Notes under the pieces: generated by a model
Databases searched by the model: none
The model's input: the letters and a program-made list of their open reading frames with translations, nothing else
What the model was told of the DNA's origin: nothing
Translations under genes and position numbers: made by a program
Assembly: GCA_963766305.1 (NCBI GenBank)
Contig: CAVYAE010000078.1
Location: 6,811-70,810 of the forward strand
Reading direction: 5' to 3'
DNA: 64,000 nt
Source of the DNA: an uncultured Bacteroidota bacterium
GTDB taxonomy: Bacteria; Bacteroidota; Bacteroidia; Bacteroidales; JAAUTT01
Shown: positions 46,112 through 62,596 of the stretch, piece after piece
How positions within the stretch are numbered: position 1 is the first letter of the stretch
Layout: every line of letters begins with the position of its first letter

Positions 46112-46251
46112 TTTTTATTGAATTTGCAACATCCTTTTTAAGAGATTTTGCATTAATCTACATTTTATACCAGTATGGTTTTTTGATATATAAGCTTAAG
46201 ATTAGAATATAATTTGTCAATCTCAAAACTACTATTGCATTAACTGCATTG

Positions 46252-46294
46252 AAATACCATGTTCTTGGTATTTTATATACCTAAAAGTAGGGAT
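46252..46294. promoter_or_regulatory. Paired palindromic operator candidates in the divergent cysJ / ABC-module promoter region
   Basis: AAATACCA-tgttct-TGGTATTT (core ATACC 46254-58, GGTAT 46267-71). A second site, ATACC-N8-GGGAT at 46277-46294, lies 23 bp away centre to centre. Confidence 0.6.
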
Positions 46295-46438
46295 AATTTT
46301 ATTTACATCAGGTTTTGATAAGTCATTTATAAATACACATTTATAAATTGCACTAAGTAGTTATGCACCATAAATTATAAGTATAAAATCCGATATAAAT
46401 TACGTTTTAATACTCTTTAAATCAGGGTTAATAAGTAA

Positions 46439-46446
46439 TATGTTTG
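46439..46446 (+). promoter_or_regulatory. Candidate -7 promoter box (TAnnTTTG) for the ABC/GTPase/NifS/Fe-S/LarE-like module
   Basis: 'TATGTTTG' lies 49 nt upstream of the ATG at 46495. Confidence 0.3.
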
Positions 46447-46494
46447 TATTAATATTTACTACAAAGGTAATCTAAATGTTTTAATACTAAATCC

Positions 46495-47280: not shown

Positions 47281-47331
47281 CAATTTAAAATATTGGTAAT
47301 AATATATACAAAATTAATCAATTATAAACAG

Positions 47332-48033
47332 ATGAAATTAGTAATTTTTGCCGGCCCGCCAACTTGTGGAAAAACAACTGTTATCCGTCAGGTAATAAAA
47401 AGAATAATTGCTAAAAACCTTAAACCGGCTTACATTAAAATAGATGTATTGTATGCTGATGAGGACCATACTTTGAAAAAGGAATTTGGTATCCCCACAA
47501 GAAAAATTTATTCGGGGGAGCTGTGTCCCGATCACTGCAATGTGGTTGTATTGGATGAAGCTGTCGAATGGGCTGAAAAAACAGGTTCTGATTATTTATT
47601 TGTCGAAACTGCGGGATTGTGTTTACGTTGTTCGCCTTATGTTGAGAACTCTCTGGGAATAGTAGTACTTGAAGCCACCAGCGGCATGAATCTGCCCCGC
47701 AAGATAGGGCCTATGCTAACCCTGGCTGATATTTCCGTAATTACTAAAATTGACCTCATCTCACAGGCTGAGCGCGAAGTGTTCCGTTACCGGGTTCTGG
47801 AATCGGCTAAAAACATTACTGTTGTGGAAAGCAATGCATTATATGGAATAGGTATTGACCCTATAGTAAAACACATACTAAAAACAGAAGATGTTGTTTT
47901 TCCTATGTACCTGCGTGGAAATCCTCCAGTGGGGACATGCACAATTTGTGTCGGGAAAAAGGAAATAGGAGCAAAAAACCATTTTGGTGTATTGAGGACC
48001 ATGGATCAGGAACTTTATTATGTTGGTGAATAA
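47332..48033 (+). CDS. P-loop GTPase of the G3E (HypB/UreG/CobW-like) type with C-terminal Cys motif
   Basis: 'FAGPPTCGKTT' P-loop, 'VETAGLCLRCSPY' (compare HypB 'ENVGNLVCP'), 'ITKIDL' (NKxD-like), C-terminal 'GTCTICVGKKE'. ATG at 47332 is preferred over TTG at 47293. Confidence 0.55.
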   Translation: MKLVIFAGPPTCGKTTVIRQVIKRIIAKNLKPAYIKIDVLYADEDHTLKKEFGIPTRKIYSGELCPDHCNVVVLDEAVEWAEKTGSDYLFVETAGLCLRCSPYVENSLGIVVLEATSGMNLPRKIGPMLTLADISVITKIDLISQAEREVFRYRVLESAKNITVVESNALYGIGIDPIVKHILKTEDVVFPMYLRGNPPVGTCTICVGKKEIGAKNHFGVLRTMDQELYYVGE

Positions 48034-48041
48034 CATTGAGC

Positions 48042-49202
48042 ATGGGAAAAACTGTATATTTTGATTACGCGGCAACTACCTGTGTTGATACGAGAGTATT
48101 GGAAACCATGCTACCCTGGTTTTCAACTTATTTTGGAAATGCGTCAAGTCTCCACCGGTCAGGTACTGAAGCAAGGGAAATACTGAACCATTCCAGGGCC
48201 CGGATTGCAAATTGCATAGGAGCCCAACCTGATGAAATTATATTTACATCCGGAGGAACAGAAGCTAATAACTTCGCATTAAAAGGTATTGCTTTCGCCA
48301 ATAAGACGAAAGGTAACCATATAATTGTTTCTTCCATTGAGCATGATTGCGTGCTTAACTCGTGTAAATGGCTTGAAGAACAGGGATTCTATGTTTCCTA
48401 CCTACCGGTTGACAGCGCCGGATTGATTGATATCGAATATTTAAAAAGAATAATAAACAACAAAACCATTCTGGTTTCAATTATGTTCGCTAACAATGAA
48501 ATAGGTACCATAGAACCGATAGAAGACATAGGTAAAATATGCCGGCAAAATGAGGTTTATTTTCATTCTGATGCCTGCCAGAGCTTTGGCAAGATTCCAA
48601 TAGATGTTAATAAAATGAATATTGATTTGCTTACTATAAATTCTCATAAAATTTATGGACCAAAAGGTGTTGGTGCGCTATACATCCGTAAGGGTACCAA
48701 TATCACACCTCTTTTACACGGAGGAGGGCAGGAAGGAGGCCAACGTTCCTCAACAGAAAATATTCCCGGTGTAGTGGGGTTTGCCAAGGCTGCTGAACTA
48801 TGTTTGTCTGAAATGAATGATGAATATGAAAGGCTTACTCACCTAAGACAAAAACTAACATACTTCCTGCTAAATACTTATGAAGGTGTTTACATAAACG
48901 GGCATACAGAGAAACGTTTACCTGGTCATCTTAGTTTTAGTTTGCATGGTATGGAAGGCGAAACTATCCGGTTGTTACTATTGCTTGATGAGATGGGTAT
49001 TGCCGTTTCTGCAGGTTCGGCGTGTTCCTCAAATCATGGTAACAGCGCTTCTCATGTTTTACAGGCAATAGGCTTAAACCCTTTTGAAGCCAGAGGAGCC
49101 ATCAGGGTAAGTTTTGGCAGGTATACCACAGAAAAAGACATAGATCTGTTAACCAATGCTCTTAGTACTACTATTATGCAATTAAATTCAATATTTTCTT
49201 AA
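48042..49202 (+). CDS. Cysteine desulfurase, NifS/IscS (class I) family
   Basis: 'YFDYAATT', 'FTSGGTEANN', 'TINSHKIYGPKG' (PLP Lys), 'SAGSACSS' (active-site Cys loop). Confidence 0.9.
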   Translation: MGKTVYFDYAATTCVDTRVLETMLPWFSTYFGNASSLHRSGTEAREILNHSRARIANCIGAQPDEIIFTSGGTEANNFALKGIAFANKTKGNHIIVSSIEHDCVLNSCKWLEEQGFYVSYLPVDSAGLIDIEYLKRIINNKTILVSIMFANNEIGTIEPIEDIGKICRQNEVYFHSDACQSFGKIPIDVNKMNIDLLTINSHKIYGPKGVGALYIRKGTNITPLLHGGGQEGGQRSSTENIPGVVGFAKAAELCLSEMNDEYERLTHLRQKLTYFLLNTYEGVYINGHTEKRLPGHLSFSLHGMEGETIRLLLLLDEMGIAVSAGSACSSNHGNSASHVLQAIGLNPFEARGAIRVSFGRYTTEKDIDLLTNALSTTIMQLNSIFS

Positions 49203-49214
49203 AAAATTTAATAA

Positions 49215-49907
49215 ATGGAAACTTTAACATCGCCTAAAACCCCAACAAATGAATTGCTGCCAGGTCTTAATTGCGGAGCTTGTGGCTACAAAACCTGCAA
49301 TGAATTTGCAATTGCTGTTGATAACGCTGAAACTGAACTGAAAAAATGTATTCATGCCAAACAATTAGTAAAAGAGCCGGTTAAAATTAACAAATGCCGG
49401 ACATGCCTTGAGAGTGAAAACCTGGGAGATAAGCTAGGCTGGGTCGACAGCCTTAGCCGTGAGTTTGATTTTATCCTGGATGTCTTTGAAGGTGAACCGG
49501 GACCCAAAGAAACGATATTGCCGTATAACCCGTCTTTAGTTAGTGAATTAGGGGTGAAAAAAGGAGATGTCATGATTGGCCGTCCTATGGGTATGTCATG
49601 CGGATGCCCCGTCACCCATTGCGGAGTAGTGTCTGAGGTGGATGCACGTAACGGCGTTATTCACTGGAACGTAACCGGACCATTACGTCCCCGTATGGAA
49701 GGGTTTATAGATATAGGCTATTATGTTTCCCAGGCATATGAAGGAGTTATAAAAGAATCGAAAGAAGAAATAAAATTAGGCAGGCGTTACTGGTTTTTGC
49801 CCCGCAGGTGTATGTTACAGTGGAGGCACAGCGGATTGGTTAATGCAGTTACAAAAATGAAAGACAGCAGTTATAAAGTCCGCATAGAAGGGTTATTTAT
49901 AGGTTGA
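49215..49907 (+). CDS. Fe-S-binding protein (RnfB-type N-terminal 4Fe-4S domain + uncharacterised Cys-containing C-terminal domain)
   Basis: 'LPGLNCGACGYKTCNEFA...KKC' matches the CxxCx4C...C motif of the RnfB N-terminal Fe-S domain. A second cluster 'MSCGCPVTHCG' follows. The rest is unrecognised. Confidence 0.55.
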   Translation: METLTSPKTPTNELLPGLNCGACGYKTCNEFAIAVDNAETELKKCIHAKQLVKEPVKINKCRTCLESENLGDKLGWVDSLSREFDFILDVFEGEPGPKETILPYNPSLVSELGVKKGDVMIGRPMGMSCGCPVTHCGVVSEVDARNGVIHWNVTGPLRPRMEGFIDIGYYVSQAYEGVIKESKEEIKLGRRYWFLPRRCMLQWRHSGLVNAVTKMKDSSYKVRIEGLFIG

Positions 49908-49990
49908 ATTTCACTACATCCGGAAATTTATTATTTTAATATTAATTTAATCGTTAAATTAGCCAGAAAGATAATTTATACCGGACTTTA

Positions 49991-50806
49991 ATGAACATTG
50001 ACGATAAATATATATCCCTGATCAAATATATAAAATCAACACAAAGCCTGACAGTAGCTTTTTCAGGAGGAATTGACAGCGCTTTTCTTTTGTTTGCTGC
50101 CAGGGAGGCATTAGGCAAGAAGAATGTTTTAGCTGTTACGATAAAAACGCTTTATTTTCCTGAGAGGGATTTAAAGGACGCACTTGAATTCAGTAAAAAA
50201 CTTTCTGTAAAGCATCAGGTTATTGATCATATAGTACCCGATAATTTAAGGCCAAACCCTGTTGACAGATGTTACTACTGTAAAAAGTTTGAATTTTCTG
50301 TTATTATAAACAAGTCCAGAGAGTACAATATAAGCAATGTAGCTGCAGGATTAAATGCAGATGACCCCTCTGACTACAGACCAGGAATATCTGCCATGAA
50401 TGAACTTAACGTACTTTTCCCTTTACAGGAGGTTAACCTGAGTAAAAAAGAAATAAGGGAACTGGCAAGGAAATTTAACCTGAAACTATGGAATAAGCCC
50501 GCCAATGCTTGTATCCTTTCCCGTATCCCATATGGTGATTTTATTACCGATGAAACGATTAAACGTATACAGGAGGCAGAGATTATTCTGCAAAAAGAAG
50601 GATTTGTAAACCCACGTGTACGTACCTACGGTACTACTGCAAGTATCGAAGTTGAACAAAATGAAATAACCAGGTTTTCGGATGATGAGCTCACTTCCAG
50701 AGTTTATTCAGCTATAAAATTACTTGGATATGAAGCTATTACTATAGACAAAAAAGGTTATAGGACAGGAAGCCTTAATGAAGGGGTTGTAACGCCGGTA
50801 AAATAA
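49991..50806 (+). CDS. LarE-like PP-loop ATP pyrophosphatase / sulfur transferase (TIGR00268-like), three-Cys ([4Fe-4S]-type) variant
   Basis: PP-loop 'AFSGGIDSAF', 'DRCYYCKKFEF' (CxxC) and 'ANACILSRIPYG' (third Cys, at the position of the sacrificial Cys in L. plantarum LarE). Confidence 0.75.
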   Translation: MNIDDKYISLIKYIKSTQSLTVAFSGGIDSAFLLFAAREALGKKNVLAVTIKTLYFPERDLKDALEFSKKLSVKHQVIDHIVPDNLRPNPVDRCYYCKKFEFSVIINKSREYNISNVAAGLNADDPSDYRPGISAMNELNVLFPLQEVNLSKKEIRELARKFNLKLWNKPANACILSRIPYGDFITDETIKRIQEAEIILQKEGFVNPRVRTYGTTASIEVEQNEITRFSDDELTSRVYSAIKLLGYEAITIDKKGYRTGSLNEGVVTPVK

Positions 50807-50848
50807 ATACAGTTATATAGCTATTAAAATATACCATAAACAAGGTAT
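50807..50848. promoter_or_regulatory. Paired palindromic operator candidates upstream of the LuxR-type regulator
   Basis: Perfect ATACC-ataaacaa-GGTAT at 50831-50848. A degenerate ATACA-N8-GCTAT at 50807-50824 lies 24 bp away centre to centre. Confidence 0.5.
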
Positions 50849-51085
50849 TTTATTTTAATAACATAATTATCATTTTTGTATACCATATATAATATCCAAA
50901 GGATTGATTCAAATACTCCAAAATATTAACTTTTTGAGAATAAACAGATATTCCTGTTGTTGTAGTTGGTGAAATCAACTTTAACATAAGTAAAACATTC
51001 TGTTTCTTATTATACTTCCTGTTGATTTCACCCAAGCTCATCCCTTTATTTTTAGTTTTTACAAATAAAATTAATTCCAGGTAAA

Positions 51086-51748
51086 ATGGAAAATATTAAT
51101 ATTTTATTGGCAGATAATCAACCGTTCACACGAATTGGCATAACCTCCGTACTATCAGGTTATTTTAACAAGCAAATTATTGTAGATCATGCGACTAACA
51201 GAGAAGAGCTTCATGAAAAATTACATCTTAATAATTCGCATGTATTAATAATTGATTATGAATTATTCGACTTTAACAATATAAATGAATTATCAGAAAT
51301 AAGGACCATTTCCCCCGGAATTGGCATACTGGTTATAACAGATAACCGTAATCCTGACAATGTTATTAAAGTCCTTAATTCCGGAATAACGAATTACATT
51401 CTAAAGTCAGCCAATGAGCAGGAACTTATAGATGCCTTCAATGCTACGGTAAATAACAGGAAATATTTTAGCAGTGAAATACTGGATGTACTGCTTGAGA
51501 AAAAAAATAATTCCCGGAATGGACATGCCTCACGCGGACAGATTACCCCTTCTGAAATAGATATTGTCAAATTAATTACACAGGGTTTAACAACAAAAGA
51601 AATAGCATCTCAGAAAAAACTCAGTTACCATACAATAATTACACACCGGAAGAATATTTTCCGAAAAGTTGGAATAAACAATACCTCAGAACTTATAATG
51701 TATGCAATGCGAACCGGAATAGTTGATTCTACAGAATATTTTATTTAA
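51086..51748 (+). CDS. NarL/FixJ (LuxR-HTH) family response regulator
   Basis: Receiver domain ('ILLADNQP', 'VLIIDYEL', 'ILVITDN', 'NYILKS') plus C-terminal 'ITPSEIDIVKLITQGLTTKEIASQKKLSYHTIITHRKNIFRKVG' LuxR-type HTH. Confidence 0.85.
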   Translation: MENINILLADNQPFTRIGITSVLSGYFNKQIIVDHATNREELHEKLHLNNSHVLIIDYELFDFNNINELSEIRTISPGIGILVITDNRNPDNVIKVLNSGITNYILKSANEQELIDAFNATVNNRKYFSSEILDVLLEKKNNSRNGHASRGQITPSEIDIVKLITQGLTTKEIASQKKLSYHTIITHRKNIFRKVGINNTSELIMYAMRTGIVDSTEYFI

Positions 51749-51806
51749 AAAATAAATTATCTTGCACTATAGAAATACTTCTGCATTATAAATAAATAAT
51801 TAAATA

Positions 51807-52984
51807 ATGAATAAAAGTTTTGGATCGCAACTGATTCACTTGGGAGAAACGAACCCGGAATCGATATCAAAGCCAAAATCCTTACCTATTTCGTTGACTT
51901 CAGTTTATGTTTTTGATGATATGGAATCCCTGGATGAGATATATTCAGGAGAGTCTAAAGGTTTTATATACACCAGGAACGGGAACCCGGTTCATGATGC
52001 GTTGAAGGAAATTATGGTAAACATAGAAGAAGGTGAAGATGCTCAGGTATTTTCATCCGGAATGGCTGCTATTGTCCTGAGTATAATTTCTCAGGTAAAG
52101 GCAGGTGATCATATAATTGCTGCAAATGTGCTTTACGGGATCAGTTATTTGTTTCTAAAATCGGAACTTTCAAGATTTAATGTTGACGTCACTTTTGCTG
52201 ACGTTATAAATGAAGATATTACGCCTTATTTTAAACCCAATACAAAGCTGGTTTATGTTGAAACCATTTCAAACCCCCTAATGGAGGTTATTGATATAGC
52301 AACAATCGCCAAGGCAGCTCATGCCAATAATGCAAAACTGATAGTTGATAATACCTTTGCCACACCTGTTATTTGTCAGCCATTATTACTCGGAGCTGAT
52401 ATTGTTGTCTACAGTGCAACAAAATACCTAAGCGGTCACAGTGATGTAACAGCAGGAATAGTTGTTTCCAATCTGGAAACCATTAAAGATATTTATACAA
52501 AGGGAATACTTTACGGACCAACCTTGAGCCCTTTTGATTCCTGGCTTATCATCCGAAGTCTGAGAACCCTGGAGTTAAGGATTAAGCAGCATTCGGACAA
52601 TGCTTTAAAATTAGCAACTTACCTTCAAACCAGCCCTAAAATAAAAAAGGTATATTATCCTGGTTTACAATCATCGTCAAGTTACGGATTAGCCGGCAGG
52701 ATTTTCAATAACGGATTATATGGAGGTATGCTGAGTATCGATCTGACAGGGGGGAAAAAAGTGCATATGCATTATTACGGTTGCTGACCACAATTAAGTT
52801 GGTGCCAAGTCTTGCAGGTGTTTCAACTTCGACCTCTTACCCTGCAAAAATATCTCACAGGGCGTTGAATGACCAGGAGCTTGAAAAAGCAAACATCTCC
52901 AAAGGATTAATTCGTGTTTCAGTGGGTCTTGAAAATGCCGATGATATTATTGCTGAATTTGAACAGGCTTTAATTAACCTTTAA
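51807..52984 (+). pseudogene. Trans-sulfuration PLP enzyme (cystathionine gamma-synthase/lyase family), one frameshift at a G6A6 run
   Basis: 'YTRNGNPV', 'FSSGMAAI', 'YSATKYLSGHSDVTAGIVV' (PLP Lys). The C-terminal 'SLAGVSTSTSYPAKISHRAL...LIRVSVGLENADDII' is in another frame. Adding one base in GGGGGGAAAAAA (52749-52760) restores '...DLTGGKKSAYALLRLLTTIKLVPSLAGV...'. Confidence 0.8.
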
Positions 52985-53104
52985 AGGTATTTTTTTTAAA
53001 TAAGCCTTCTTAATATCATATCCCTTATTTTTTCCCATATTGTGTTTCGTTTTCTTCTGCTATTATAGGGCTTTTGTCCGCGAAAAAAAACGCCGTATAA
53101 CCTA

Positions 53105-53145
53105 ATACCTCAAATTAGGTATATAAGATACCAACAATGAGGGAT
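53105..53145. promoter_or_regulatory. Paired palindromic operator candidates upstream of cysK
   Basis: Perfect ATACC-tcaaatta-GGTAT at 53105-53122. ATACC-N8-GGGAT at 53128-53145 lies 23 bp away centre to centre. The pair sits 63-103 nt upstream of the cysK ATG. Confidence 0.6.
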
Positions 53146-53207
53146 TTTATTAATTTAAAATGTTCCTCACCTTTGAAAAATAATGTAATATTCAAATTAT
53201 TAAAATA

Positions 53208-54143
53208 ATGGCTGGTATTGCTAAAACATTGACCGACCTCATTGGGAACACTCCTTTAATGGAACTGGCAAATATTGAGAGAACCTTTAAATTACATGCC
53301 ACAGTTATTGCTAAACTGGAATTATATAATCCCGCAAGAAGTGTTAAGGACAGGATAGGTTTTGCGATGATAAAAGCAGGTGAAAACCAGGGTCTGATAA
53401 ATAAGAATACAACTATAATTGAACCAACAAGCGGTAACACGGGTATTGCTTTAGCTTTTGTTGCAGCAGCCAGAAATTACAAGCTTATACTTATAATGCC
53501 TGAAACCATGAGTATTGAGCGTCGGAACCTTTTGACTGCCCTGGGTGCACAGATAGTTTTAACACCGGGACATGAAGGTATGGGAGGTGCTGTGAGGAAG
53601 GCTGAAGAACTGCATGCCAAAACGCCAAATTCCTTTATCCCCCAGCAATTTAAAAACGCCGCTAATCCTGAAATTCACAGGACTACCACAGCAGAAGAAA
53701 TCTGGAACGATACAGATGGTGATATTGATATTTTTGTTTCAGGCGTTGGCACAGGAGGTACCATTACAGGAGTGGGTGAGGTCCTTAAAAAAAGAAAGCC
53801 CGACATAAAAATTGTGGCGGTGGAACCTTTCGACTCCCCTGTTTTATCGGAAGGCCGACCAGGACCACATAAAATACAGGGTATAGGTGCCGGATTTGTG
53901 CCTGAAGTATTAAACAGGAATGTTATAGATGAAATCATTAAGGTCAAAAATGATGAAGCATTTCAGACAGGAAGGGACCTGGCACGTTTTGAAGGGCTCC
54001 TGGTAGGAATATCTTCCGGAGCTGCCGTTTATGCAGCTGTTCATTTAGCAAAACGTCAGGAGAATAAAGGGAAAAAAATAGTTGTAGTTGTTCCGGATAC
54101 AGGGGAAAGATATATATCTACTTTATTGTATAATAAGGAATAA
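53208..54143 (+). CDS. cysK: Cysteine synthase A (O-acetylserine sulfhydrylase)
   Basis: '[10 protein letters not shown]', '[11 protein letters not shown]' (PLP Lys), '[12 protein letters not shown]', '[10 protein letters not shown]', 'GISSGAA'. Confidence 0.95.
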
Positions 54144-54374
54144 AGGGACTAAATCTCAGGAAGAAATAACTACATAATAGTAATCAACACCTGACATAAA
54201 AATTCAGATAAAAATTAACTCCGTATGCAAAACAGTCAGAAAAATAAATTACACCGTGCTCAAAATATTCAGTATAATGATTAACTCTTGACAAAAAACT
54301 TTCACCATAATAATAAACTTCAGACATCAAATCTTCAGAATAGTAATTAAAACAAAACATAATAAGACAATCAT

Positions 54375-55058
54375 ATGCAAATTAAAGTAAATGGTAAAGA
54401 ACAGAAAATTGAACAGAACCCTTTATTATTGCTCGATCTGATCAAACAAAATAATGTCAGGCAACCTGATATGGTATCCGTTCAGCTTAATGGAAATTTT
54501 GTCCAAAGGGGAGATTTTGACAATACTGCAATAAAAGAAGGGGATGAGGTTGAATTCCTTTACTTTATGGGTGGAGGTCAAGGCGATAGGAAAAAATTGT
54601 CTATTATAAGTTTTAGTGGAGATTTTGATAAACTTGTAGCCGCGTTTACCTTGGCTACCGGCTCAGCTGCAGTCGGATTGGATGTATTTATATTTTTTAC
54701 TTTCTGGGGTTTAAATGTTATTAAAAAGGAACGCGGAAGAAAAGCCTTAGGTAAGGGGTTTCTTGCCAAATTCTTTGTATTTCTGCAGGGAGGAAGGAAT
54801 AATTTACCTTTAAGCAGATTAAATTTTGGCGGCATAAGTCCCAAACTAATGACACATATGATGCGCCAGAGGAATGTTGCTACACTTGATGAACTTATTG
54901 ATGCGGCTATTGCTCTTGATGTTAAACTTTATGCATGCGAAATGTCCGGGGTAATTCTCGGTTTGGACAAGGATACTTATATCCCTGAAGTAAAAGAGGT
55001 AATAGGAGTGGCTAAATTCCTTGAGCTCTCTGAAGGCGGCGACAGGATTTTCATTTAA
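54375..55058 (+). CDS. Fusion protein: ThiS/MoaD-type sulfur carrier (residues 1-68, ending ...FMGGG) + DsrE/DsrF/DrsH-like domain
   Basis: N-terminus 'MQIKVNGKEQKIE...VQLNGNFVQRGDFDNTAIKEGDEVEFLYFMGGG' is a complete ThiS ending in the Gly-Gly(-Gly) terminus. The remainder, 'KLSIISFSGDFDKLVAAFTLATGSAAVGLDVFIFFTFWGLNVI...LYACEMSGVILGL', matches the COG2210/DrsE_2 family, including the conserved Cys. Confidence 0.75.
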   Translation: MQIKVNGKEQKIEQNPLLLLDLIKQNNVRQPDMVSVQLNGNFVQRGDFDNTAIKEGDEVEFLYFMGGGQGDRKKLSIISFSGDFDKLVAAFTLATGSAAVGLDVFIFFTFWGLNVIKKERGRKALGKGFLAKFFVFLQGGRNNLPLSRLNFGGISPKLMTHMMRQRNVATLDELIDAAIALDVKLYACEMSGVILGLDKDTYIPEVKEVIGVAKFLELSEGGDRIFI

Positions 55059-55083
55059 TAGTTTAAATTATATATAAATATTT

Positions 55084-56520
55084 ATGTCTGAAGATTTTAC
55101 AACACGAAGCGTAACTACAGTCATTGCCCGCAACCTGGCGAATACAACCAAGACGGTTCCTCAAATGGGGTCTATAACCCCAAGGTATTTACTTAAACTG
55201 CTGCCATGGGTGCATGTGGCATCCGGTACATACAGGGTCAACAGGACTAAAGTTGAGCTTAAGAAAGCCGACCGTATTGAAATAGATTACAGGGAAGGTT
55301 CAGCTTCATTTCAGTCCGAAGCTTTAAAAAGCATACCACTGTTTTCATCACTCGAAGAGGATATCCTTGAACGAATTGCAACACGCTTTACCACAGAAGA
55401 AGCAGATCTGGGAAGCAACCTTATTCTTGAAGGCGAAGACAGGCATAAGTTTTTTATAATTGCACACGGTCAGGTGGAGGTCTTAAGTAAGGGACTCCAC
55501 GGGGAAGAACTCAGGATTGCACTTTTATCGGAAGGGGAATATTTCGGTGAGGAAGATTTTATCACAGACAGGCCATCAGACGTTACAGTAAGGGCAATAA
55601 CCCATGGGGTATTTCTAACCTTATCTGGAAAGGATCTGGAGGCAATTTTCAGTGAAATCCCAAATTCACGCAAGAAATTTGAAAAAGCCAGGGAAGATTA
55701 TGCTAGATTAAGATCTTCGGTGAACAAACACGGAGAACGACATATAGACCTGGTATCAGGTTTAGAGGAAGACCATGTAATACCTGAAACTTATGTGGAT
55801 TATGCAGTAAAACCCAAGGAATATTCACTAAATGCTATTCAAACCATTGTGAGGGTCCATACCAGAGTATCCGACCTTTACAACGATCCCCACAACCAGC
55901 TGGAACAACAAATGCGGCTGACCATTGAAGGCATGAAAGAAAAGCAGGAATGGGAACTAATTAATAACAAGGAATTTGGATTGTTACATGCTGTAGATCC
56001 CAGCCAGCGAATAAGCACACGTTATGGAGCACCTACCCCTGACGATCTGGATGAGTTACTTGCTCTCGTTTGGAAAAAACCAGCTTTCTTTTTGGCACAT
56101 CCCAAAGCTATAGCTGCTTTTGAACGTGAGTGTACCTGGAGAGGAGTACCGCCGGTTACTATTCAGCTATTTGGAAGTCCTATAGTAACATGGAGGGGTG
56201 TTCCATTAATCCCGAATGACAAGCTTGAAGTAAGGGGACATTTATCCAGCCGTGGTCTTGGTACTACCAATATATTACTTATAAGGGTAGGAGAGGATGA
56301 GCAGGGGGTAGTGGGTCTGCACCAGGCAGGAATTCCGGGGGAAATTTCTCCCAGCCTTTCTGCACGTCTGATGGGATTGGACCGCCTGGGTGTTGCTTCT
56401 TACCTGTTAACCCAGTATTTTTCATTGGCCGTACTTACGGATGATGCATTGGCAGTTCTTGAAAATGTAGAAGTGGGATATTATCACGATTATCAGCACA
56501 GAATTCCAAAAGTAAAATGA
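55084..56520 (+). CDS. Family 2B encapsulin nanocompartment shell protein (HK97 fold with inserted cNMP-binding domain)
   Basis: 'ARNLANTTKTVPQMGSITPRYLLKLLPW', 'IPETYVDYAVKPKEYSLNAIQTIVRVHTRVSDLYN', 'YGAPTPDDLDELLALVWKKPAFFLAHPKAIAAFERECTWRGVPP', 'WRGVPLIP' and 'LAVLTDDALAVLENVEV' match my memory of SrpI-type Family 2 shells. Residues ~85-200 ('IPLFSSL...FGEEDF...RPSDVTVRA') form a CRP-like cNMP-binding domain. Confidence 0.85.
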   Translation: MSEDFTTRSVTTVIARNLANTTKTVPQMGSITPRYLLKLLPWVHVASGTYRVNRTKVELKKADRIEIDYREGSASFQSEALKSIPLFSSLEEDILERIATRFTTEEADLGSNLILEGEDRHKFFIIAHGQVEVLSKGLHGEELRIALLSEGEYFGEEDFITDRPSDVTVRAITHGVFLTLSGKDLEAIFSEIPNSRKKFEKAREDYARLRSSVNKHGERHIDLVSGLEEDHVIPETYVDYAVKPKEYSLNAIQTIVRVHTRVSDLYNDPHNQLEQQMRLTIEGMKEKQEWELINNKEFGLLHAVDPSQRISTRYGAPTPDDLDELLALVWKKPAFFLAHPKAIAAFERECTWRGVPPVTIQLFGSPIVTWRGVPLIPNDKLEVRGHLSSRGLGTTNILLIRVGEDEQGVVGLHQAGIPGEISPSLSARLMGLDRLGVASYLLTQYFSLAVLTDDALAVLENVEVGYYHDYQHRIPKVK

Positions 56521-56553
56521 TTATACAAATACACAAAATATACAAAATAATAT

Positions 56554-58299
56554 ATGTCAGAAAACAATGCAACTTTTGAACCACCTATTGGTGATGAATT
56601 ATTGAATCCTGCAATAATTGCCCAAATAGCAAGCAGAATTTATAATGAAATACCTGGTGTTTCAGGAATACCTGTTAATCTTGCTGAGGCTTCAAAAACA
56701 CCCTCGGAGTACAGTGATCCCGGAGAGTTGTTGAATTATAATACCTCAATTGATGAACCGGCTATTGCTGATTTTAGTTTTTTAAAGAATATATTGGGCC
56801 TGGAATCAGGTGCTGGTTGCATAGCTAAAGTATTAAGAGTAGAAAATACAAAACAAAGTGATTTTTCAGGGAAATTGCTGGGAGGATATATACCTGATTA
56901 TTACTTTCTTAAAAACAGTAATATTCAGGAAGATAAACAATTATTAGAGCATACGGATAACCTGGTAAATCAGCAAACCCTGACGGGAGACACTGCCGGA
57001 GCATCCAGTTTGAAACAATATGTTCAAAAGGTTCGGTCAGTAAATGGTGGCTTCTCAGAGAAAAGCCGGGATAATTCAATTTTTGATGTTAACCGTATCA
57101 GGAAGGATTTTCCCGTTCTTAACCAGTATGTGCACGGGAAGCCTTTAATATGGTTTGATAATGCAGCAACGACACAAAAACCCGGAAGTGTAATAGATTC
57201 CTTGTCCAGGTTTTACAGTCATGATAATTCAAACATACACCGGGGAGCACATTCCCTGGCAGCGAGGGCTACTGATGGCTATGAAGGTACAAGGGAGAAT
57301 GTAAGGCGTTTTCTGGGAGCGGGGTCCGTGTCTGAAATTGTATTTGTAAGGGGAACCACAGAAGCTATTAATCTGGTAGCTCAGACCTGGGGAAGGAAAA
57401 ACATTCTTCCTGGTGATGAGATACTTGTTACTATACTGGAACATCATGCAAATATTGTACCCTGGCAAATGCTGGCAAAGGAAAAAGGGGCAATCCTCCG
57501 TCCCATACCTGTAAATGACAGGGGTGAGATTTTACTTGATGATTACAGCAGGTTGCTTACGCCGCATACAAAATTGGTAGCTCTTACACATGCTTCGAAC
57601 AGCATTGGTACCATTTTGCCTGTTAAGGAAATGATACAGCTCGCCAAACGATATGATACAAAGGTATTGGTAGACGGAGCACAGTCTGTGGCTCACATAC
57701 CTGTCAACGTCCAGGACCTGGATGCTGATTTCTTCGTATTTTCAGGCCATAAAATATTTGCTCCTACCGGTATAGGTATTTTGTTCGGTAAAAAGGAAAT
57801 ATTGGAAAATATGCCTCCATGGCAGGGTGGGGGAAATATGATTAAGGATGTCACCTTCGGAGAAACTATTTTTAATAAAGTACCGGATAAATTTGAAGCA
57901 GGTACACCAAGTATTGGTGACGCAATAGGTTTAGGCGCTGCACTGGATTATGTAAATAAAGTTGGTCTGCATAATATTGCCGCTTACGAGCACAAACTTA
58001 CTGATTATGCAACCGGGCTGTTAAGGCAAATTCCAGGGGTAAGACTTATAGGCTTACCTGGAGAAAAAGTAGGAGTTATATCTTTAGTATTAAACAATAT
58101 TAATAGTGAACAGGCAGGCCGGTACCTCGACCAGGAAGGGATTGCCCTGCGTACGGGACATCATTGTGCTCAGCCAGCCCTGAGAAGGTTTGGAGTAGAA
58201 AGTACCATAAGACCTTCATTTTCATTTTATAATACCTTTGATGAGATTGACTGTTTTGTTGCAGCCATTAAGAAAATTGCCCAGGGGAAATTACTATAA
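56554..58299 (+). CDS. SufS/CsdA-type (class II) cysteine desulfurase with ~175-aa N-terminal extension; predicted encapsulin cargo
   Basis: The core starts at 'IRKDFPVLNQYVHGKPLIWFDNAATTQKP' and includes 'HRGAHSLA', 'FSGHKIFAPTGIG' (PLP Lys) and 'RTGHHCAQP' (active-site Cys). The N-terminal ~175 aa are low-complexity and contain 'LNPAIIAQIASRIYNEIPG', reminiscent of the cargo-loading motif of Family 2 desulfurases. Confidence 0.85.
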   Translation: MSENNATFEPPIGDELLNPAIIAQIASRIYNEIPGVSGIPVNLAEASKTPSEYSDPGELLNYNTSIDEPAIADFSFLKNILGLESGAGCIAKVLRVENTKQSDFSGKLLGGYIPDYYFLKNSNIQEDKQLLEHTDNLVNQQTLTGDTAGASSLKQYVQKVRSVNGGFSEKSRDNSIFDVNRIRKDFPVLNQYVHGKPLIWFDNAATTQKPGSVIDSLSRFYSHDNSNIHRGAHSLAARATDGYEGTRENVRRFLGAGSVSEIVFVRGTTEAINLVAQTWGRKNILPGDEILVTILEHHANIVPWQMLAKEKGAILRPIPVNDRGEILLDDYSRLLTPHTKLVALTHASNSIGTILPVKEMIQLAKRYDTKVLVDGAQSVAHIPVNVQDLDADFFVFSGHKIFAPTGIGILFGKKEILENMPPWQGGGNMIKDVTFGETIFNKVPDKFEAGTPSIGDAIGLGAALDYVNKVGLHNIAAYEHKLTDYATGLLRQIPGVRLIGLPGEKVGVISLVLNNINSEQAGRYLDQEGIALRTGHHCAQPALRRFGVESTIRPSFSFYNTFDEIDCFVAAIKKIAQGKLL

Positions 58300-58336
58300 A
58301 GGAACATGTTACCTAATTAGTTTTTGTTTTGTAAAT

Positions 58337-58364
58337 CCCGGTGTTTGCGAAAATCCCGGGTTTT
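58337..58364. terminator. Possible terminator hairpin between the convergent desulfurase and JAMM genes
   Basis: CCCGG-(14 nt)-CCGGG followed by TTTT. The stem is only 5 bp. Confidence 0.35.
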
Positions 58365-58445
58365 ACATTTTATCCTTTTTTAATCAATATTGCACAGTAT
58401 TTATCATCAATCATTATAAAGATGATGAAATGTGTCTGGTAATAA

Positions 58446-58844
58446 TTAATTTATAATCTTGATCTCTTCATTCAAAGCGATGCCATTGACAATGCGAAAT
58501 GACTTTACCACCGGTTCTTTTTCTGCAAGGGAAATAATTATATAGCTGATATCCGGATCATAGGCAAGACGTATGTCTTCCTGTGAAGGTCGTGAAGGAG
58601 TTGATGGATGGCTGTGGTAATTTGCAATAATATTTAAGCCTTTATTACGGGCTTCTTTTACAGTTTTAAACTGTTCTGACGGATCGAATGAAAAATGTTC
58701 AGGGCTATGGTCAGTATTAGTAAGCTCATAGGCCGTTGTTATAACACCGTCCTCTCCCGCAAGATAACCACATGCTTCATCCGGCAGGTCTTTTTTAGCA
58801 TGTGCTATAATCTGATCTAATATACCACTTGATATTGAAATCAT
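58446..58844 (-). CDS. JAMM/MPN+ metalloprotease (Mec+/HcyD/QbsD-like)
   Basis: 'EACGYL' and 'HSHPSTPSRPSQED' (E...HxH...S..D JAMM motif). The start overlaps the TusA-like stop by 4 nt. Confidence 0.85.
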   Translation of the reverse strand: MISISSGILDQIIAHAKKDLPDEACGYLAGEDGVITTAYELTNTDHSPEHFSFDPSEQFKTVKEARNKGLNIIANYHSHPSTPSRPSQEDIRLAYDPDISYIIISLAEKEPVVKSFRIVNGIALNEEIKIIN

Positions 58845-59065
58845 TTTTCAATAGTTATTTTGTGTACAGAATCTTTCACATGCTGAATATTCAAAACCTT
58901 ATATCCCTGTTCAGTGGCGCTCTTAGGCACATTCTCCAATGGCTCACCTTCTGTAAGTAAAACTTCAAGGATATCTCCATTATTAAGTTTTGACAATTCA
59001 ATTTTAGTTTTTACAAATGTCATCGGACAATGTTCTTTTGTAATATCAAGTTGTTTAGTTGCCAT
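58841..59065 (-). CDS. TusA/SirA-family sulfurtransferase
   Basis: 74 aa. 'LDITKEHCPMTFVKTKIELSKL..GDILEVL' carries the conserved Cys, in CPMT rather than the canonical CPxP. Confidence 0.7.
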   Translation of the reverse strand: MATKQLDITKEHCPMTFVKTKIELSKLNNGDILEVLLTEGEPLENVPKSATEQGYKVLNIQHVKDSVHKITIEK

Positions 59066-59080
59066 AATATTTAAGTTTCA

Positions 59081-59911
59081 TTATTTATGATGTTCATTTT
59101 CTGTAATCGGCGGTGTTTCGCAAACTGGCAGGTCATAGGTTTGTAATTCAGTTATCGTAGGATGTTCACCGCAGATGGGGCATTGTTTGTTTCTGTTAAA
59201 TGTTATATTACGAAATTCCATGGATAATGCATTAAATGTCAGCAAACGGTTTGTCAACAGTTCACCCGTTCCTGTAAAATACTTCAGCACTTCGGTAGCT
59301 TGTATAGTTCCGAGCATCCCTGCAATCGATCCCAATACTCCTGCCTGCGAACATGTAGGCACAGCATCGGGTGGTGGCGGACTGTTGAAGGCACACCTGT
59401 AACAAGCGTTGTCAGGAGTATGGGTAAATGTTTGTCCTTCAAAACGAAGGATACCTCCATGTGAGAATGGTTTACCCGATATTACACAAGCATCATTAAT
59501 CAGGAATTTTGTAGGAAAGTTGTCTGTACCATCAATTACAAAATCGTAGTTTTTTATAATATCAAATATATTATAGGATGACAGTAAATCCTGGTAAGCA
59601 ATTACATATACATCCGGGTTGAGCTTATTTATTTTTTCTTTTGCGGAGTTCACCTTTGGTTTATTGACGTCTTCGGTATAATGTATGACCTGTCTCTGGA
59701 GGTTGGTCAGATCAACTACATCGGCATCTATTATTCCAATTGTCCCCACACCTGCTGCAGCAAGGTAAAGAGCAGCAGGTGAACCAAGTCCGCCTGCCCC
59801 GACTATGAGTACCTTACCTTCCATAATTTTTTGCTGTCCTTCAACACCCACATTCTGAAGGATTATATGCCTGCTGTAACGTTCAATTTGGGAATCTGTA
59901 AATTCTATCAT
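59081..59911 (-). CDS. ThiF/MoeB/HesA-family E1-like adenylyltransferase (HcyF/MoeZ-like, no rhodanese domain)
   Basis: 'RYSRHIIL..VG.EGQQKI....VLIVGAGGLGSPAALYLAAAGVG', 'DLTNLQRQ', and the Zn motifs 'CYRC' and 'CPICG'. Confidence 0.9.
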   Translation of the reverse strand: MIEFTDSQIERYSRHIILQNVGVEGQQKIMEGKVLIVGAGGLGSPAALYLAAAGVGTIGIIDADVVDLTNLQRQVIHYTEDVNKPKVNSAKEKINKLNPDVYVIAYQDLLSSYNIFDIIKNYDFVIDGTDNFPTKFLINDACVISGKPFSHGGILRFEGQTFTHTPDNACYRCAFNSPPPPDAVPTCSQAGVLGSIAGMLGTIQATEVLKYFTGTGELLTNRLLTFNALSMEFRNITFNRNKQCPICGEHPTITELQTYDLPVCETPPITENEHHK

Positions 59912-59984
59912 AAAGATACCTTGTCCTTCTTAATTGTTTTAAATAATCAGCCATAATTAAATGGTAATCCGTGTACGTCATCGT

Positions 59985-60040
59985 TAATCAGTTATCAATC
60001 ATCTGTCGTCCATAATCAGTCGTCAATCATCTGTCCTCAG
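59985..60040. repeat. 28-bp tandem repeat x2 in the metY - E1 spacer
   Basis: TAATCAGTTATCAATCATCTGTCGTCCA / TAATCAGTCGTCAATCATCTGTCCTCAG. The second copy overlaps the metY stop codon (60037-60039). Confidence 0.85.
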
Positions 60041-61269
60041 ACTAAAGCTGATTCAATATCTGTTAATAAATCATTAATATCTTCTATTCCTGCTGATAAT
60101 CTCAATAATGTATCCGGTACTCCTATTTTCTGGCGTGTTTCGAAACCAAAATCACAATATATTGTCGAAGCAGGATGAATAATTACTGATTTGTTATCGT
60201 AAATATTTGTTGCACGCCGGATTAATTTCAGATTATTAATAAAATCAAAACTTTCCTGCTTTGTTTCGAAATTTATTGTAAGCATGGCTCCAGGGTATTT
60301 ACCAAACTGCTTAAGGCCGATATTGTAAAATGGTGAGCCGGGTAAACCCGGATAATTCACATTTTTTATGCCTGGTTTATCCAGAAGATATTCAGCTATG
60401 GACAGACAATTACTTACCGATTTGTCAAAACGAAGTGCAAGGGATTCAAGCCCCACACTCTGAAGGTAAGCATTGAATGGTGACAGGCAGGCACCTAAGT
60501 TTCTTTGTATTTCTCTTCTAAGCTTGACTTTTAGTACCCAGGGTCCGAATTTAGAAGATAAATTGGAAAGCTTTTTGTTGTACGACCAATCATAAGTGCC
60601 ATAGTCTACTATAATCCCTCCGACTGAGGTAGCCCCTCCTGAAATTATTTTAGTACTGGATATTACTTCAATATTTATACCAAAATCTGAAGCCCGGAAT
60701 ATATTAGGCGGAGTAAGGGTGGTATCGGCAATTAATAATAAATGATGCTCTTTGGCAACCCCTGATAAAGGGCTAATATCAGCAATTTCAAGTTGAGGAT
60801 TTGTAATGGTTTCAATATATATTGCCACGGTATCCCCATCTATATTTTGTTGTACTTCTTCAATATTGTTTAAGTCACAAAACCTGACTTCAACACCAAA
60901 AGGTTCCAGAGTAGATGTAAAAAAGGAATAAGTGTTCCCAAACAGGTGCCTCGAGGCAATTATATTGCTGCCAGCCTGGCATATGGCTAAAAATATATTC
61001 GAAATGGCAGCCATGCCTGAGCCTAGTGCAGAAACAGCTATGCCTCCTGTAACCGATAATATCCGTCTTTCGAGGTTTTCTACTGTAGGGTTTGAAATAC
61101 GGGTATAGATATGGTCAGGATGATGCCCAAGAAATGCCTCTTCCATGTATTCAGCAGATTCAAATTCAAAGGCAGCATTGCTGTATATTGGCATTTGAAG
61201 TGCATTGTGAGCATCGTTTCTGGCATAGCCGGTATGAATTATTTTAGTAGAAAACCCTTCCAGTTCCAT
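60037..61269 (-). CDS. metY: O-acetylhomoserine sulfhydrylase-like PLP enzyme (MetY family)
   Basis: 'YTRISNPTV', 'LGSGMAAI', 'SSTKIISGGATSVGGIIVDYGTYDWS' (PLP Lys and the OAHS-type insertion), C-terminal 'LLRLSAGIEDINDLLTDIESAL'. Confidence 0.8.
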   Translation of the reverse strand: MELEGFSTKIIHTGYARNDAHNALQMPIYSNAAFEFESAEYMEEAFLGHHPDHIYTRISNPTVENLERRILSVTGGIAVSALGSGMAAISNIFLAICQAGSNIIASRHLFGNTYSFFTSTLEPFGVEVRFCDLNNIEEVQQNIDGDTVAIYIETITNPQLEIADISPLSGVAKEHHLLLIADTTLTPPNIFRASDFGINIEVISSTKIISGGATSVGGIIVDYGTYDWSYNKKLSNLSSKFGPWVLKVKLRREIQRNLGACLSPFNAYLQSVGLESLALRFDKSVSNCLSIAEYLLDKPGIKNVNYPGLPGSPFYNIGLKQFGKYPGAMLTINFETKQESFDFINNLKLIRRATNIYDNKSVIIHPASTIYCDFGFETRQKIGVPDTLLRLSAGIEDINDLLTDIESALV

Positions 61270-61319
61270 CCTTCCATTTTTGTTAACTGCAAAGATGCAA
61301 CCATATGGTTTTACTTTAA

Positions 61320-61360
61320 ATACCTATGATTTGGTATATTTCGTACCGTTATTTAGGTAT
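61320..61360. promoter_or_regulatory. Paired palindromic operator candidates upstream of metY
   Basis: Perfect ATACC-tatgattt-GGTAT at 61320-61337. GTACC-gttattta-GGTAT at 61343-61360 lies 23 bp away centre to centre. The pair sits 51-91 nt upstream of the metY ATG (61269, minus strand). Confidence 0.6.
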
Positions 61361-61519
61361 AAGGATTGATTTTGATATATCGTAGCTGATTGGTTATTGT
61401 AAACTGTACGCGATTGATTATGATATGTTGACCTTAATTTATTTATTGTATTGTAAACAATATCTTCAAGATGATTGATTAACCATGTTTAAGAATTCTG
61501 TCAAAGTATCACTTTTCAC

Positions 61520-62596
61520 CTACAAAATAAGCTTGTCCATTAACCTGATGTAAACATCTATTCCATTTTTGATTTCGTCGAGACCGATGTATTCATCAGC
61601 TGTATGTGAGCGGGCAGAATCGCCGGGTCCTATTTTTATAGAAGTGCAACCGATTACAGCCTGATCGGAGGTAGTAGGAGAACCATAGGTTGATAAGCCT
61701 GTCTCAATTCCACGTTTGACAATTGGATGTTCAATTGAAATACTGGATGAATTATGATCCAGGGAACGAGGAACAATGGTTGAGTACTTCATATGGCTTC
61801 TAATGATTTCAAGAGCCTGTTCATTTAAATAATGTTCATTGGTGCGCACATCCACTGTATAATTACAATTGTCAGGTACAACATTGTGCTGCGATCCTGC
61901 ATTAATTATTGTAACAGACATTTTAACCTTACCATTTATTTCTGATTCTTTTGGAAACTGAAATTCCTGGAACCATTTAATATCTTCAATTGCCTTATAT
62001 ATTGCGTTTATACCTTCATTTCGCGCAGCGTGACCTGATTTTCCAGCAGTTTTACAATCAAGCACCATAAGTCCTTTTTCAGCAACAGCCATTTGCATTT
62101 GAGTAGGCTCACCGACTATGGCAAGATCTATTTTACCCAAATCGTCAATTATACTTTTAACTCCATTAATACCTGTGTTTTCTTCTTCACCTGTGGCGCT
62201 GTATATGAGGTTATACTTACGGTCAGACTTTTGAGAAAGGTAATAAAAAGCCATCATCATACAAACCAACGGACCACCTGCATCATTGCTTCCAAGACCA
62301 AATAGTTTACCGTCCTTCTCAACAGGTGTAAAAGGATCAACTGTCCAGGACGATGAAGGTTTTACCGTATCATGATGTGAATTAAGTAAAATAGTTGGCA
62401 ATTTATCTGATAAGAAGGAGCTCACCCAGACATTGTTGTTTTTACGGTTAGTTGTAAACCCGTCCGATTTTAAAAAACCTTCTATCAGATCAGCAGTTTT
62501 ATGTTCCTGGGTGCTAATTGAAGGAATAGAAATCATTTGTTTAAGAAGGTTTAACGCTTTAAGGTAGTATTTTTCCAACCGGACGGATTGTTCCAT
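61520..62596 (-). CDS. M20-family deacylase (ArgE-like acetyl/succinyl-ornithine deacylase)
   Basis: 'LLNSHHDTV', 'LFGLGSNDAGG', 'ATGEEE' and 'GHAAR' are M20 metal-site motifs. Sits next to argF'. Confidence 0.75.
   Translation of the reverse strand: MEQSVRLEKYYLKALNLLKQMISIPSISTQEHKTADLIEGFLKSDGFTTNRKNNNVWVSSFLSDKLPTILLNSHHDTVKPSSSWTVDPFTPVEKDGKLFGLGSNDAGGPLVCMMMAFYYLSQKSDRKYNLIYSATGEEENTGINGVKSIIDDLGKIDLAIVGEPTQMQMAVAEKGLMVLDCKTAGKSGHAARNEGINAIYKAIEDIKWFQEFQFPKESEINGKVKMSVTIINAGSQHNVVPDNCNYTVDVRTNEHYLNEQALEIIRSHMKYSTIVPRSLDHNSSSISIEHPIVKRGIETGLSTYGSPTTSDQAVIGCTSIKIGPGDSARSHTADEYIGLDEIKNGIDVYIRLMDKLIL

Follow-up and report, generated by a model that had tools for sequence, protein, structure and literature searches.

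Conserved linkage of a family 2B desulfurase encapsulin to a thiocarboxylate sulfur-carrier unit in Bacteroidota

Two gene sets at one locus

A stretch of 64,000 nucleotides (nt) from an uncultured Bacteroidota bacterium (assembly GCA_963766305.1, contig CAVYAE010000078.1), referred to here as the window, contains a locus of eight genes in which an encapsulin shell and its cysteine desulfurase cargo stand beside a ThiS-type sulfur-carrier system (Table 1). Genes were taken from a list of open reading frames (ORFs) with translations, and families were assigned by Pfam and NCBIfam scans of the window proteins. The plus-strand and minus-strand gene sets converge across a gap of 146 nt (58300-58445), the TusA and JAMM genes share 4 nt, and 231 nt separate cysK from the fusion gene, so that one plus-strand transcript is putative. 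The first-pass annotation, an earlier description of this DNA, had listed these eight genes, the 4-nt overlap and the paired palindromes upstream of both sets; ORF list, Pfam, NCBIfam and site scan reproduced all of them.

The shell protein combines an HK97-fold SrpI-like domain (PF19307, 385 bits in the Pfam scan) with an inserted CBD-fold domain at residues 110-190 (PF00027, 51 bits against a cutoff of 27.5), the feature that separates family 2B from family 2A. It matches the solved 2B shells 9bje, 9bhu and 9bix over the full length (E 1e-107 to 1e-117) and also the SrpI-type shells 6x8m and 8t6r (E about 1e-106 to 1e-109). The cargo begins with a loading domain of ~176 residues (56554-57081), followed from near residue 176 by a SufS-type core whose translation carries the desulfurase signatures SGHK and GHHCAQP; its best PDB match is 8kg1. 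Two loading motifs have been published for SrpI cargo, LARLANEFFS and AASPYYFLDG (PMC8049743), and the window cargo contains IAQIASRIYNEIPG and IPDYYFLKN, which by sequence correspond to both of them. The N-terminal extension of related cargo proteins is poorly conserved and measures about 108-344 residues. A motif LNPxxIAQIASRIYNEIPG is found in cargo of Bacteroidota, Chlorobi and Planctomycetota; a loose IAQIASRIYNE pattern matches 64 of 77 cargo proteins, and YYFL occurs in 33 of the 77, the window cargo among them. Taken together, shell and cargo have the sequence-level hallmarks of a family 2B desulfurase encapsulin.

The pair resembles the family 2A encapsulins SrpI of Synechococcus elongatus (Nichols 2021, PMC8049743) and the storage encapsulin of Acinetobacter baumannii (Benisch 2024, PMC10836720) in its SrpI-like HK97-fold shell, in a SufS-type cargo whose poorly conserved loading domain bears LARLANEFFS-like and YYFL motifs, and in its setting among sulfur-assimilation genes. 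Unlike these, the window shell has the CBD-fold insertion, and its accessory genes encode CysK, ThiS, E1, TusA, DsrE-like, JAMM and MetY proteins; the rhodanese and serine acetyltransferase encoded beside family 2A shells (PMC10836720) are absent from the window locus. Family 2B was left out of the 2024 survey of desulfurase-encapsulin operons. Andreas and Giessen counted 199 family 2B desulfurase operons, whose accessory genes are not described in the accessible part of that work.

The CBD-fold domain had been proposed in the first-pass annotation to offer a cyclic nucleotide (cNMP) input through the shell. Such an input now appears unlikely: where PKG and PKA domains have their phosphate-binding arginine, the window cassette (FGEEDFITDRPSDVTV) has an aligned serine, leaving the window shell without the residue by which canonical cyclic-nucleotide binding is recognised. 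The replacement is general: among 87 shell ORFs, 75 have readable cassettes, with serine in 71, alanine in 4 and arginine in none, and K/R-P-S-x-V-T-V is conserved there in most of the sampled relatives. The solved Streptomyces family 2B shell (Sg Enc) does not bind cAMP (PMC11550324). With EshA/Sg Enc of Streptomyces griseus (PMC11550324) the window protein shares the full-length architecture, an externally displayed CBD-fold domain and the absence of the phosphate-binding arginine. It differs in having a conserved serine where Sg Enc has a tryptophan, in its single shell gene, and in a cysteine desulfurase cargo where Sg Enc has a 2-methylisoborneol synthase. The CBD-fold domain itself (55384-55653, shell residues about 101-190) is nearer to PKG/PKA-type domains (E about 1e-15) than to the Streptomyces 2B domain (1e-9).

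The carrier unit is represented on the plus strand by a fusion protein. Its ThiS part (54375-54578; TIGR01683, 57 bits against a cutoff of 37) ends in FLYFMGGG and has a PDB match in 2k5p; the DsrE-like part (54579-55058) has its closest solved relative in 3pnx. In every ThiS examined, FLYFMGGG is followed either by 0-25 residues or by an entire DsrE-like domain. A carrier with GGG plus an extension must be trimmed, which accounts for the conserved JAMM protease, whose metal-ligand motif E...HSHPSTPSRPSQED (E...HSH-x7-S-x2-D) reads intact in the translation. The DsrE-like domain retains Cys188 (YACEMS) in 120 of 120 homologs. It belongs to PF13686 (140 bits) but not to the DsrE2 equivalog, for which it scores 66 bits against a cutoff of 210 (NF047629).

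On the minus strand, TusA shows the cysteine motif CPMT in translation, and its top NCBIfam match, the selenium-linked YedF, lies below cutoff at 48.6 bits. In the E1, a GxGxxG loop is accompanied by two CxxC pairs and by a cysteine in the cross-over loop, and no rhodanese domain was found in it by the Pfam and NCBIfam scans; E1 proteins lacking that domain always co-occur with SirA/TusA (PMC1779556). The MetY-like protein scores 358 bits with TIGR01326 (cutoff 495) and falls below every NCBIfam equivalog cutoff, so its substrate specificity is putative. Homologs that are 58-65% identical adjoin ThiS in loci with the carrier unit alone, and the protein is a member of a divergent subfamily accompanying the ThiS unit. 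In gene content the unit fits neighbourhood type 4e of Iyer, Burroughs and Aravind 2006 (PMC1779556), and the carrier set can thus no longer be taken for the new pathway that it had seemed to be.

Fusions join the partners of this pathway in two ways, ThiS with the DsrE-like domain and sulfite reductase with TusA. Thiocarboxylate-based amino-acid synthesis has reportedly been described for HcyS/HcyF/HcyD/MetY of Wolinella succinogenes by Krishnamoorthy and Begley in 2011, and for CysO/MoeZ/Mec+/CysM of M. tuberculosis by Burns et al. in 2005; we take the carrier unit to be akin to the Wolinella HcyS pathway. The features shared with the HcyS, CysO and type 4e systems are a ThiS-like carrier with an extension after GG, a JAMM protease, a rhodanese-less E1 paired with SirA/TusA, an O-acylhomoserine sulfhydrylase-like MetY and a sulfite reductase in the neighbourhood. 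The window set departs from these systems by the addition of a DsrE-like protein that is invariantly conserved and here fused to ThiS, and by the conserved operonic linkage to an encapsulin and its desulfurase. It also differs from its carrier-only relatives, in that its sulfite reductase is of the CysJI type and lies 7-15 kb off, where theirs is an adjacent sulfite reductase-TusA fusion.

Conservation of the linkage

A scan with the shell across one genome per GTDB species returned 517 relatives, of which the best 80 (identity at least 69%) were kept and their loci, here given L numbers, screened by tblastn with all window proteins. Twenty of the 80 loci belong to Bacteroidota, 18 of them informative in having usable upstream sequence, and carrier-unit genes lie beside the shell in 17 of these 18. 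The commonest form is a single co-directional operon, cysK-ThiS-(MetY)-E1-DsrE-like-TusA-JAMM-shell-cargo, in which cysK and the shell gene, two members of the encapsulin unit, flank the carrier genes on either side. We distinguish at least five gene orders: that of the window; that of L002/L004, where the fusion and TusA genes precede the shell gene and E1 and/or JAMM occupy another part of the locus (in L002 both follow the cargo gene, in L004 E1 precedes cysK); that of L027; that of L033/L034/L040; and that of L058/L072, where cysK is internal to the operon. The gene immediately upstream of the shell gene in shell-linked Bacteroidota loci is that of TusA or JAMM, with TusA in this position in L002, L003, L004, L052, L058, L065, L069 and L072.

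Searches that start from the carrier unit recover the same linkage. The homologs of the fusion protein fall into ~36 clusters of fusions and many stand-alone DsrE-like proteins, which are 158-183 residues long and share 68-79% identity with the window domain. In metagenomes, the DsrE-like domain retrieved 80 loci, ~31 of them with the unit and at least 2.5 kb of downstream sequence. At least ten shell-linked metagenome loci were found through this domain, and the short fusion-bearing contigs L089, L091, L096 and L097 add such cases to those with the longer flank. With the Bacteroidota loci found through the shell, these loci answer the neighbourhood survey that the first-pass annotation had proposed: the co-localisation is conserved in relatives. 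Gut or rumen Prevotella and Parabacteroides metagenome-assembled genomes (MAGs) are among the carriers of the combined system.

Within these sets MetY tracks the carrier unit and cysK the shell, and the dependence is asymmetric, as the Bacteroidota encapsulin is nearly always found with the carrier unit and the carrier unit usually without the encapsulin. In one Bacteroidales MAG, for example, ThiS-ThiF-DsrE-like-TusA-JAB forms a separate operon that runs divergently from MetY, siroheme genes and a sulfite reductase-TusA fusion, and a distance of 10 kb around it holds no shell gene. The slot after JAMM in carrier-only loci is often occupied by such a fusion, which is a sulfur donor and ties sulfite reduction to the persulfide relay. 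A representative (L084, 4899-7226, minus strand) encodes a 775-residue sulfite reductase-like protein with two NIR_SIR repeats and a C-terminal TusA domain, and homologous genes are present in L085-L087, L100-L106, L114-L117, L119, L123 and L134. The notion that the encapsulin replaces this fusion was considered and is weakened, several loci holding both.

A neighbour-joining tree of the E1 proteins, built on a single 270-residue protein and including some short contigs among those counted as unlinked, shows shell-linked and unlinked units interspersed, which argues for repeated gain or loss of the linkage. Pairs of DsrE-like and TusA genes also occur alone, without ThiS, E1 or JAMM (L081, 10001-10804, on a Dethiobacter-like contig; L109, L110, L124 and L125), at about 70% identity to the window domain, and this pair is therefore seen as an older, self-standing unit.

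Beyond Bacteroidota the encapsulin unit is found in other company. In Bacteroidota, Chlorobi, Planctomycetota and Spirochaetota alike, cysK is a direct neighbour of shell and cargo, and it is present with them in all non-Bacteroidota loci that have enough flank. Because cysK accompanies shell and cargo in three phyla without this carrier unit, we count it as part of the encapsulin unit, and its proposed role as a recipient in the carrier pathway loses ground. In Bacteroidota the HcyS-type carrier unit has been added to this encapsulin unit. A different ThiS system occurs in 12 Chlorobium-clade loci, where ThiS-ThiG-ThiH-ThiF lies downstream of shell and cargo in the order OAH-sulfhydrylase, HPr-like, LuxR-type regulator, cysK, cysE, shell, cargo, CGS-like, ThiS, ThiG, ThiH, ThiF; Chlorobium ferrooxidans (L007, 5334-17875) exemplifies it, with 11 related loci. 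This is a second, independent link of an encapsulin to a ThiS/ThiF system. A Schlesneria MAG of the Planctomycetota (L046, 6678-13178) has a divergent Rrf2 regulator, cysK, two tandem 2B shell genes and cargo, with a gene for a sulfate-type binding protein nearby.

Both halves of the locus are thus of known kinds, and the new element is their linkage. The earlier suggestion that the combination is undescribed holds for the open-access papers and bioRxiv preprints searched, where no encapsulin is mentioned together with a thiocarboxylate or a sulfur carrier protein; for encapsulin with TusA, the sole co-mention there is a single passing reference to TusA in a preprint on an Asgard archaeon. In the tables of the Nichols 2021 supplement the only enriched neighbour is PALP (PF00291), and ThiF, ThiS, TusA, JAB and DrsE_2 are not reported there as enriched.

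Regulatory sites and genomic setting

The encapsulin and carrier units of the window are also connected by a shared cis-element, the palindrome ATACC-N8-GGTAT, whose pairs are spaced by 23 nt. With at most one mismatch it matches eight times in the whole window against 2.5 expected, and none of 100 shuffles reached eight. Among relatives, 9 of 14 Bacteroidota and 23 of 30 Chlorobi loci have it at 80-122 nt upstream of cysK, against 0 of 14 Planctomycetota loci, and it is present in the MetY/ThiS divergent region of carrier-only loci as well. We regard these palindromes as candidate regulator-binding sites. The third pair, at cysJ, marks a common sulfur regulon, and the encapsulin and carrier units are probably co-regulated.

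The TACC-N10-GGTA core of the palindrome has the 7-2-7 arrangement of NarL sites. The window encodes a NarL/LuxR-type regulator 1.5 kb upstream of the palindrome, and a homolog is found directly upstream of palindrome and cysK in Chlorobi loci; this response regulator may bind the palindromes. A consensus promoter and terminator scan of 52900-61600 gave counts no higher than shuffle expectation, Bacteroidota promoters not being of the consensus type, and an Rfam scan of 45500-62000 matched no riboswitch or other RNA family. Control of metY by an S-adenosylmethionine (SAM) riboswitch is therefore unsupported.

The locus forms the right-hand end of a sulfur-assimilation island at 39-61 kb, which also holds CysI and CysJ (both passing their equivalog cutoffs), siroheme genes and a NifS/LarE operon; arginine-synthesis genes follow beyond 61.5 kb. 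The NifS/LarE operon (46254-50806), preceded by the palindrome, carries genes for a permease-less ABC-type ATPase, a CobW/HypB-like GTPase, a NifS-type cysteine desulfurase, a 230-residue PF04060 'FeS' protein and LarE, an ATP-dependent sacrificial sulfur transferase. Judged by its genes and its palindrome, this operon is a second desulfurase-based sulfur-transfer set of the same regulon. At 51807-52984 on the plus strand, a Cys_Met_Meta_PP enzyme (methionine gamma-lyase/cystathionine gamma-synthase-like) is split into ORFs of 326 and 67 residues by a frameshift at a G6A6 homopolymer run (52750-52761), probably an assembly error and otherwise the mark of a pseudogene.

Table 1. Genes and regulatory sites of the locus and its surroundings (window coordinates)
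Feature	Position	Strand	Evidence or remark
cysK, O-acetylserine sulfhydrylase A	53208-54143	+	TIGR01139 468 bits, cutoff 351
ThiS-DsrE-like fusion	54375-55058	+	ThiS residues 3-68, PF13686 DrsE_2 residues 72-220
Family 2B encapsulin shell	55084-56520	+	NF041163 582 bits, cutoff 400; PF19307 and PF00027
Cargo SufS-type cysteine desulfurase, N-extended	56554-58299	+	TIGR01979 545 bits, cutoff 475
JAMM/Prok-JAB metalloprotease	58446-58844	-	PF14464 97.6 bits
TusA-family persulfide carrier	58841-59065	-	PF01206 75 bits
ThiF/MoeB-type E1 adenylyltransferase, 276 residues	59081-59911	-	PF00899 alone, residues 12-245
MetY-like pyridoxal phosphate (PLP) sulfhydrylase (Cys_Met_Meta_PP family)	60037-61269	-	PF01053
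Paired ATACC-N8-GGTAT, upstream of cysK	53105-53122 (exact), 53128-53145 (1 mismatch)		103 and 80 nt from cysK
Paired ATACC-N8-GGTAT, upstream of metY	61320-61360 (starts 61320/61343)		Site scan
Paired ATACC-N8-GGTAT, between cysJ and divergent NifS/LarE operon	46254-46294 (starts 46254/46277)		Site scan
Further ATACC-N8-GGTAT match	50831-50848		
Orphan NarL/LuxR-family response regulator	51086-51748	+	Candidate palindrome binder

Routes of sulfur through the locus

The conserved linkage can be read as a Bacteroidota variant of the family 2B desulfurase-encapsulin operon that is genetically joined to a Wolinella HcyS or 'type 4e' thiocarboxylate unit, the two acting as one sulfur-trafficking system. 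We favour this reading tentatively and give it somewhat less than an even chance of being right. We infer the following course for the chemistry, for the passage of sulfur out of the shell and for the way in which it flows. CysK would make cysteine, whose sulfur the encapsulated desulfurase would turn, within the shell, into sulfane sulfur that is stored or bound to the enzyme. TusA would then pick up the sulfane sulfur leaving the shell and hand it to the DsrE-like cysteine. In parallel, JAMM would cut off the C-terminal extension of ThiS, in the window the whole DsrE-like domain, and expose the GG end for adenylation by the E1. The persulfide relay would turn the adenylate into a thiocarboxylate (ThiS-COSH), MetY would join this to O-acylhomoserine, and JAMM would finally free homocysteine.

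Persulfide relays of a comparable kind are IscS-TusA-TusBCD-TusE of E. coli and Rhd-TusA-DsrE2/DsrEFH-DsrC of sulfur oxidisers. The locus is like them in encoding together a desulfurase, TusA and a DsrE-fold protein with a conserved cysteine. It is unlike them in that the acceptor would be the ThiS acyl-adenylate rather than tRNA or DsrC, that the DsrE-like protein does not reach the DsrE2 cutoff, and that the desulfurase is encapsulated.

Several observations weigh against a single trafficking system. The encapsulin and carrier halves lie on opposite strands in the window, and the carrier unit was found by tblastn in 0 of the 60 Chlorobi, Planctomycetota or Spirochaetota loci among the best 80 of the 517 relatives; in these phyla the encapsulin unit works without it. 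Among the ~31 metagenome carrier loci, ~5 run into shell and cargo, ~10 have the sulfite reductase fusion only and ~16 have neither, and several shell-linked loci hold this fusion too. The carrier set is common without the shell and often stands by the fusion, so the desulfurase need not be its sulfur source; the unit clearly has others. Family 2A pores measure at most about 6 Å and exclude proteins and glutathione (PMC10836720), and family 2A cargo stores sulfur with no need of an acceptor (PMC10836720; PMC12746231), so that any hand-off must use small sulfur species or a docking mechanism that has not been seen. The translations of TusA and the DsrE-like protein have no loading-domain extension, and co-encapsulation is thus not indicated. 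Finally, the whole 39-61 kb stretch is a sulfur island, and shared regulation alone could explain the proximity.

This last thought leads to the alternative that we consider possible though somewhat doubtful, namely a shared regulon without a dedicated hand-off, in which the carrier would draw on sulfite reductase or free sulfide and the encapsulin would store cysteine-derived sulfur independently. It agrees with the frequency of each unit without the other, the carrier often by the sulfite reductase-TusA fusion and the encapsulin in other phyla, with the exclusion of protein acceptors by family 2A pores, and with the presence in the window of cysJ, cysI, siroheme genes and the NifS/LarE operon under the same palindrome. 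A regulon of this kind accounts less readily for the nesting of the carrier genes between cysK and the shell gene in one co-directional operon in many genomes, for an adjacency that survives at least five rearrangements, for the near-universal presence of carrier genes beside Bacteroidota encapsulins (17 of 18 informative loci), and for the linkage of a second ThiS/ThiF system in Chlorobium.

The trafficking system can also be put in a stronger form, which we hold to be fairly unlikely. Here the Bacteroidota desulfurase encapsulin would be a dedicated sulfane-sulfur reservoir from which TusA and the DsrE-like protein withdraw sulfur for delivery to adenylated ThiS (ThiS-AMP), giving a cystathionine-independent route to homocysteine from cysteine or stored sulfur. 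The CBD-fold domains on the outside of the shell, which cannot bind cNMP canonically, might then serve TusA and the DsrE-like protein as docking sites, and the Chlorobium ThiS-ThiG-ThiH-ThiF linkage would be a parallel case for thiazole synthesis.

Sulfur might instead run the other way. In M. tuberculosis, CysO donates sulfur to CysM, and by analogy ThiS-COSH, charged from sulfite reductase or sulfide via TusA and the DsrE-like protein, could feed both CysK and MetY, with the encapsulated desulfurase storing the surplus. The position of cysK directly upstream of ThiS in most linked operons is in keeping with this, as is the same position in the carrier-only loci L111, L119, L134, L142 and L148; ThiS/E1/JAB neighbourhoods with cysteine synthase are on record (rows 4c and 4d, PMC1779556), and encapsulated desulfurases accumulate sulfur without an acceptor (PMC10836720; PMC12746231). 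We nonetheless judge a reversed flow unlikely, though together with the shared regulon it is one of two serious rivals, given that across phyla cysK co-varies with the shell and not with the carrier unit, that the protein scores as CysK (468 bits) rather than CysM (280-295 bits), and that what TusA and DsrE-like proteins carry is sulfane sulfur, as made by desulfurases, and that their genes lie directly beside the shell gene in several loci. A role of the locus in another thio-cofactor, tRNA thiolation or selenium pathway, instead of amino-acid synthesis, is highly improbable: the sub-cutoff YedF match of TusA, the selenocysteine lyase activity of SufS-type enzymes and the thiazole-type set linked in Chlorobium would suit such a role, but MetY is an integral, conserved member of the carrier unit, neither the ORF list nor the Pfam and NCBIfam scans contain a selD, thiG, tRNA thiolase or cofactor synthase gene at the locus, and the neighbouring genes are those of sulfate and sulfite assimilation.

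How stored sulfur is remobilised from desulfurase encapsulins, and for what destination, is an acknowledged open question, for which only a co-encoded rhodanese has been proposed (PMC10836720). The Bacteroidota operon names alternative partners, TusA, the DsrE-like protein and the ThiS/E1/JAMM carrier system, together with a concrete product, homocysteine made by MetY, which makes the question testable with a few small soluble proteins and offers a candidate route for the use of sulfur stored in these shells. It widens the accessory repertoire of family 2B encapsulins, so far studied only with terpene cargo, and adds a conserved DsrE-like component and its fusion to ThiS to the thiocarboxylate amino-acid pathway, as well as a cis-regulatory palindrome of sulfur genes common to Bacteroidota and Chlorobi. 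With gut or rumen Prevotella and Parabacteroides among its carriers, the system may bear on the sulfur economy of host-associated anaerobes.

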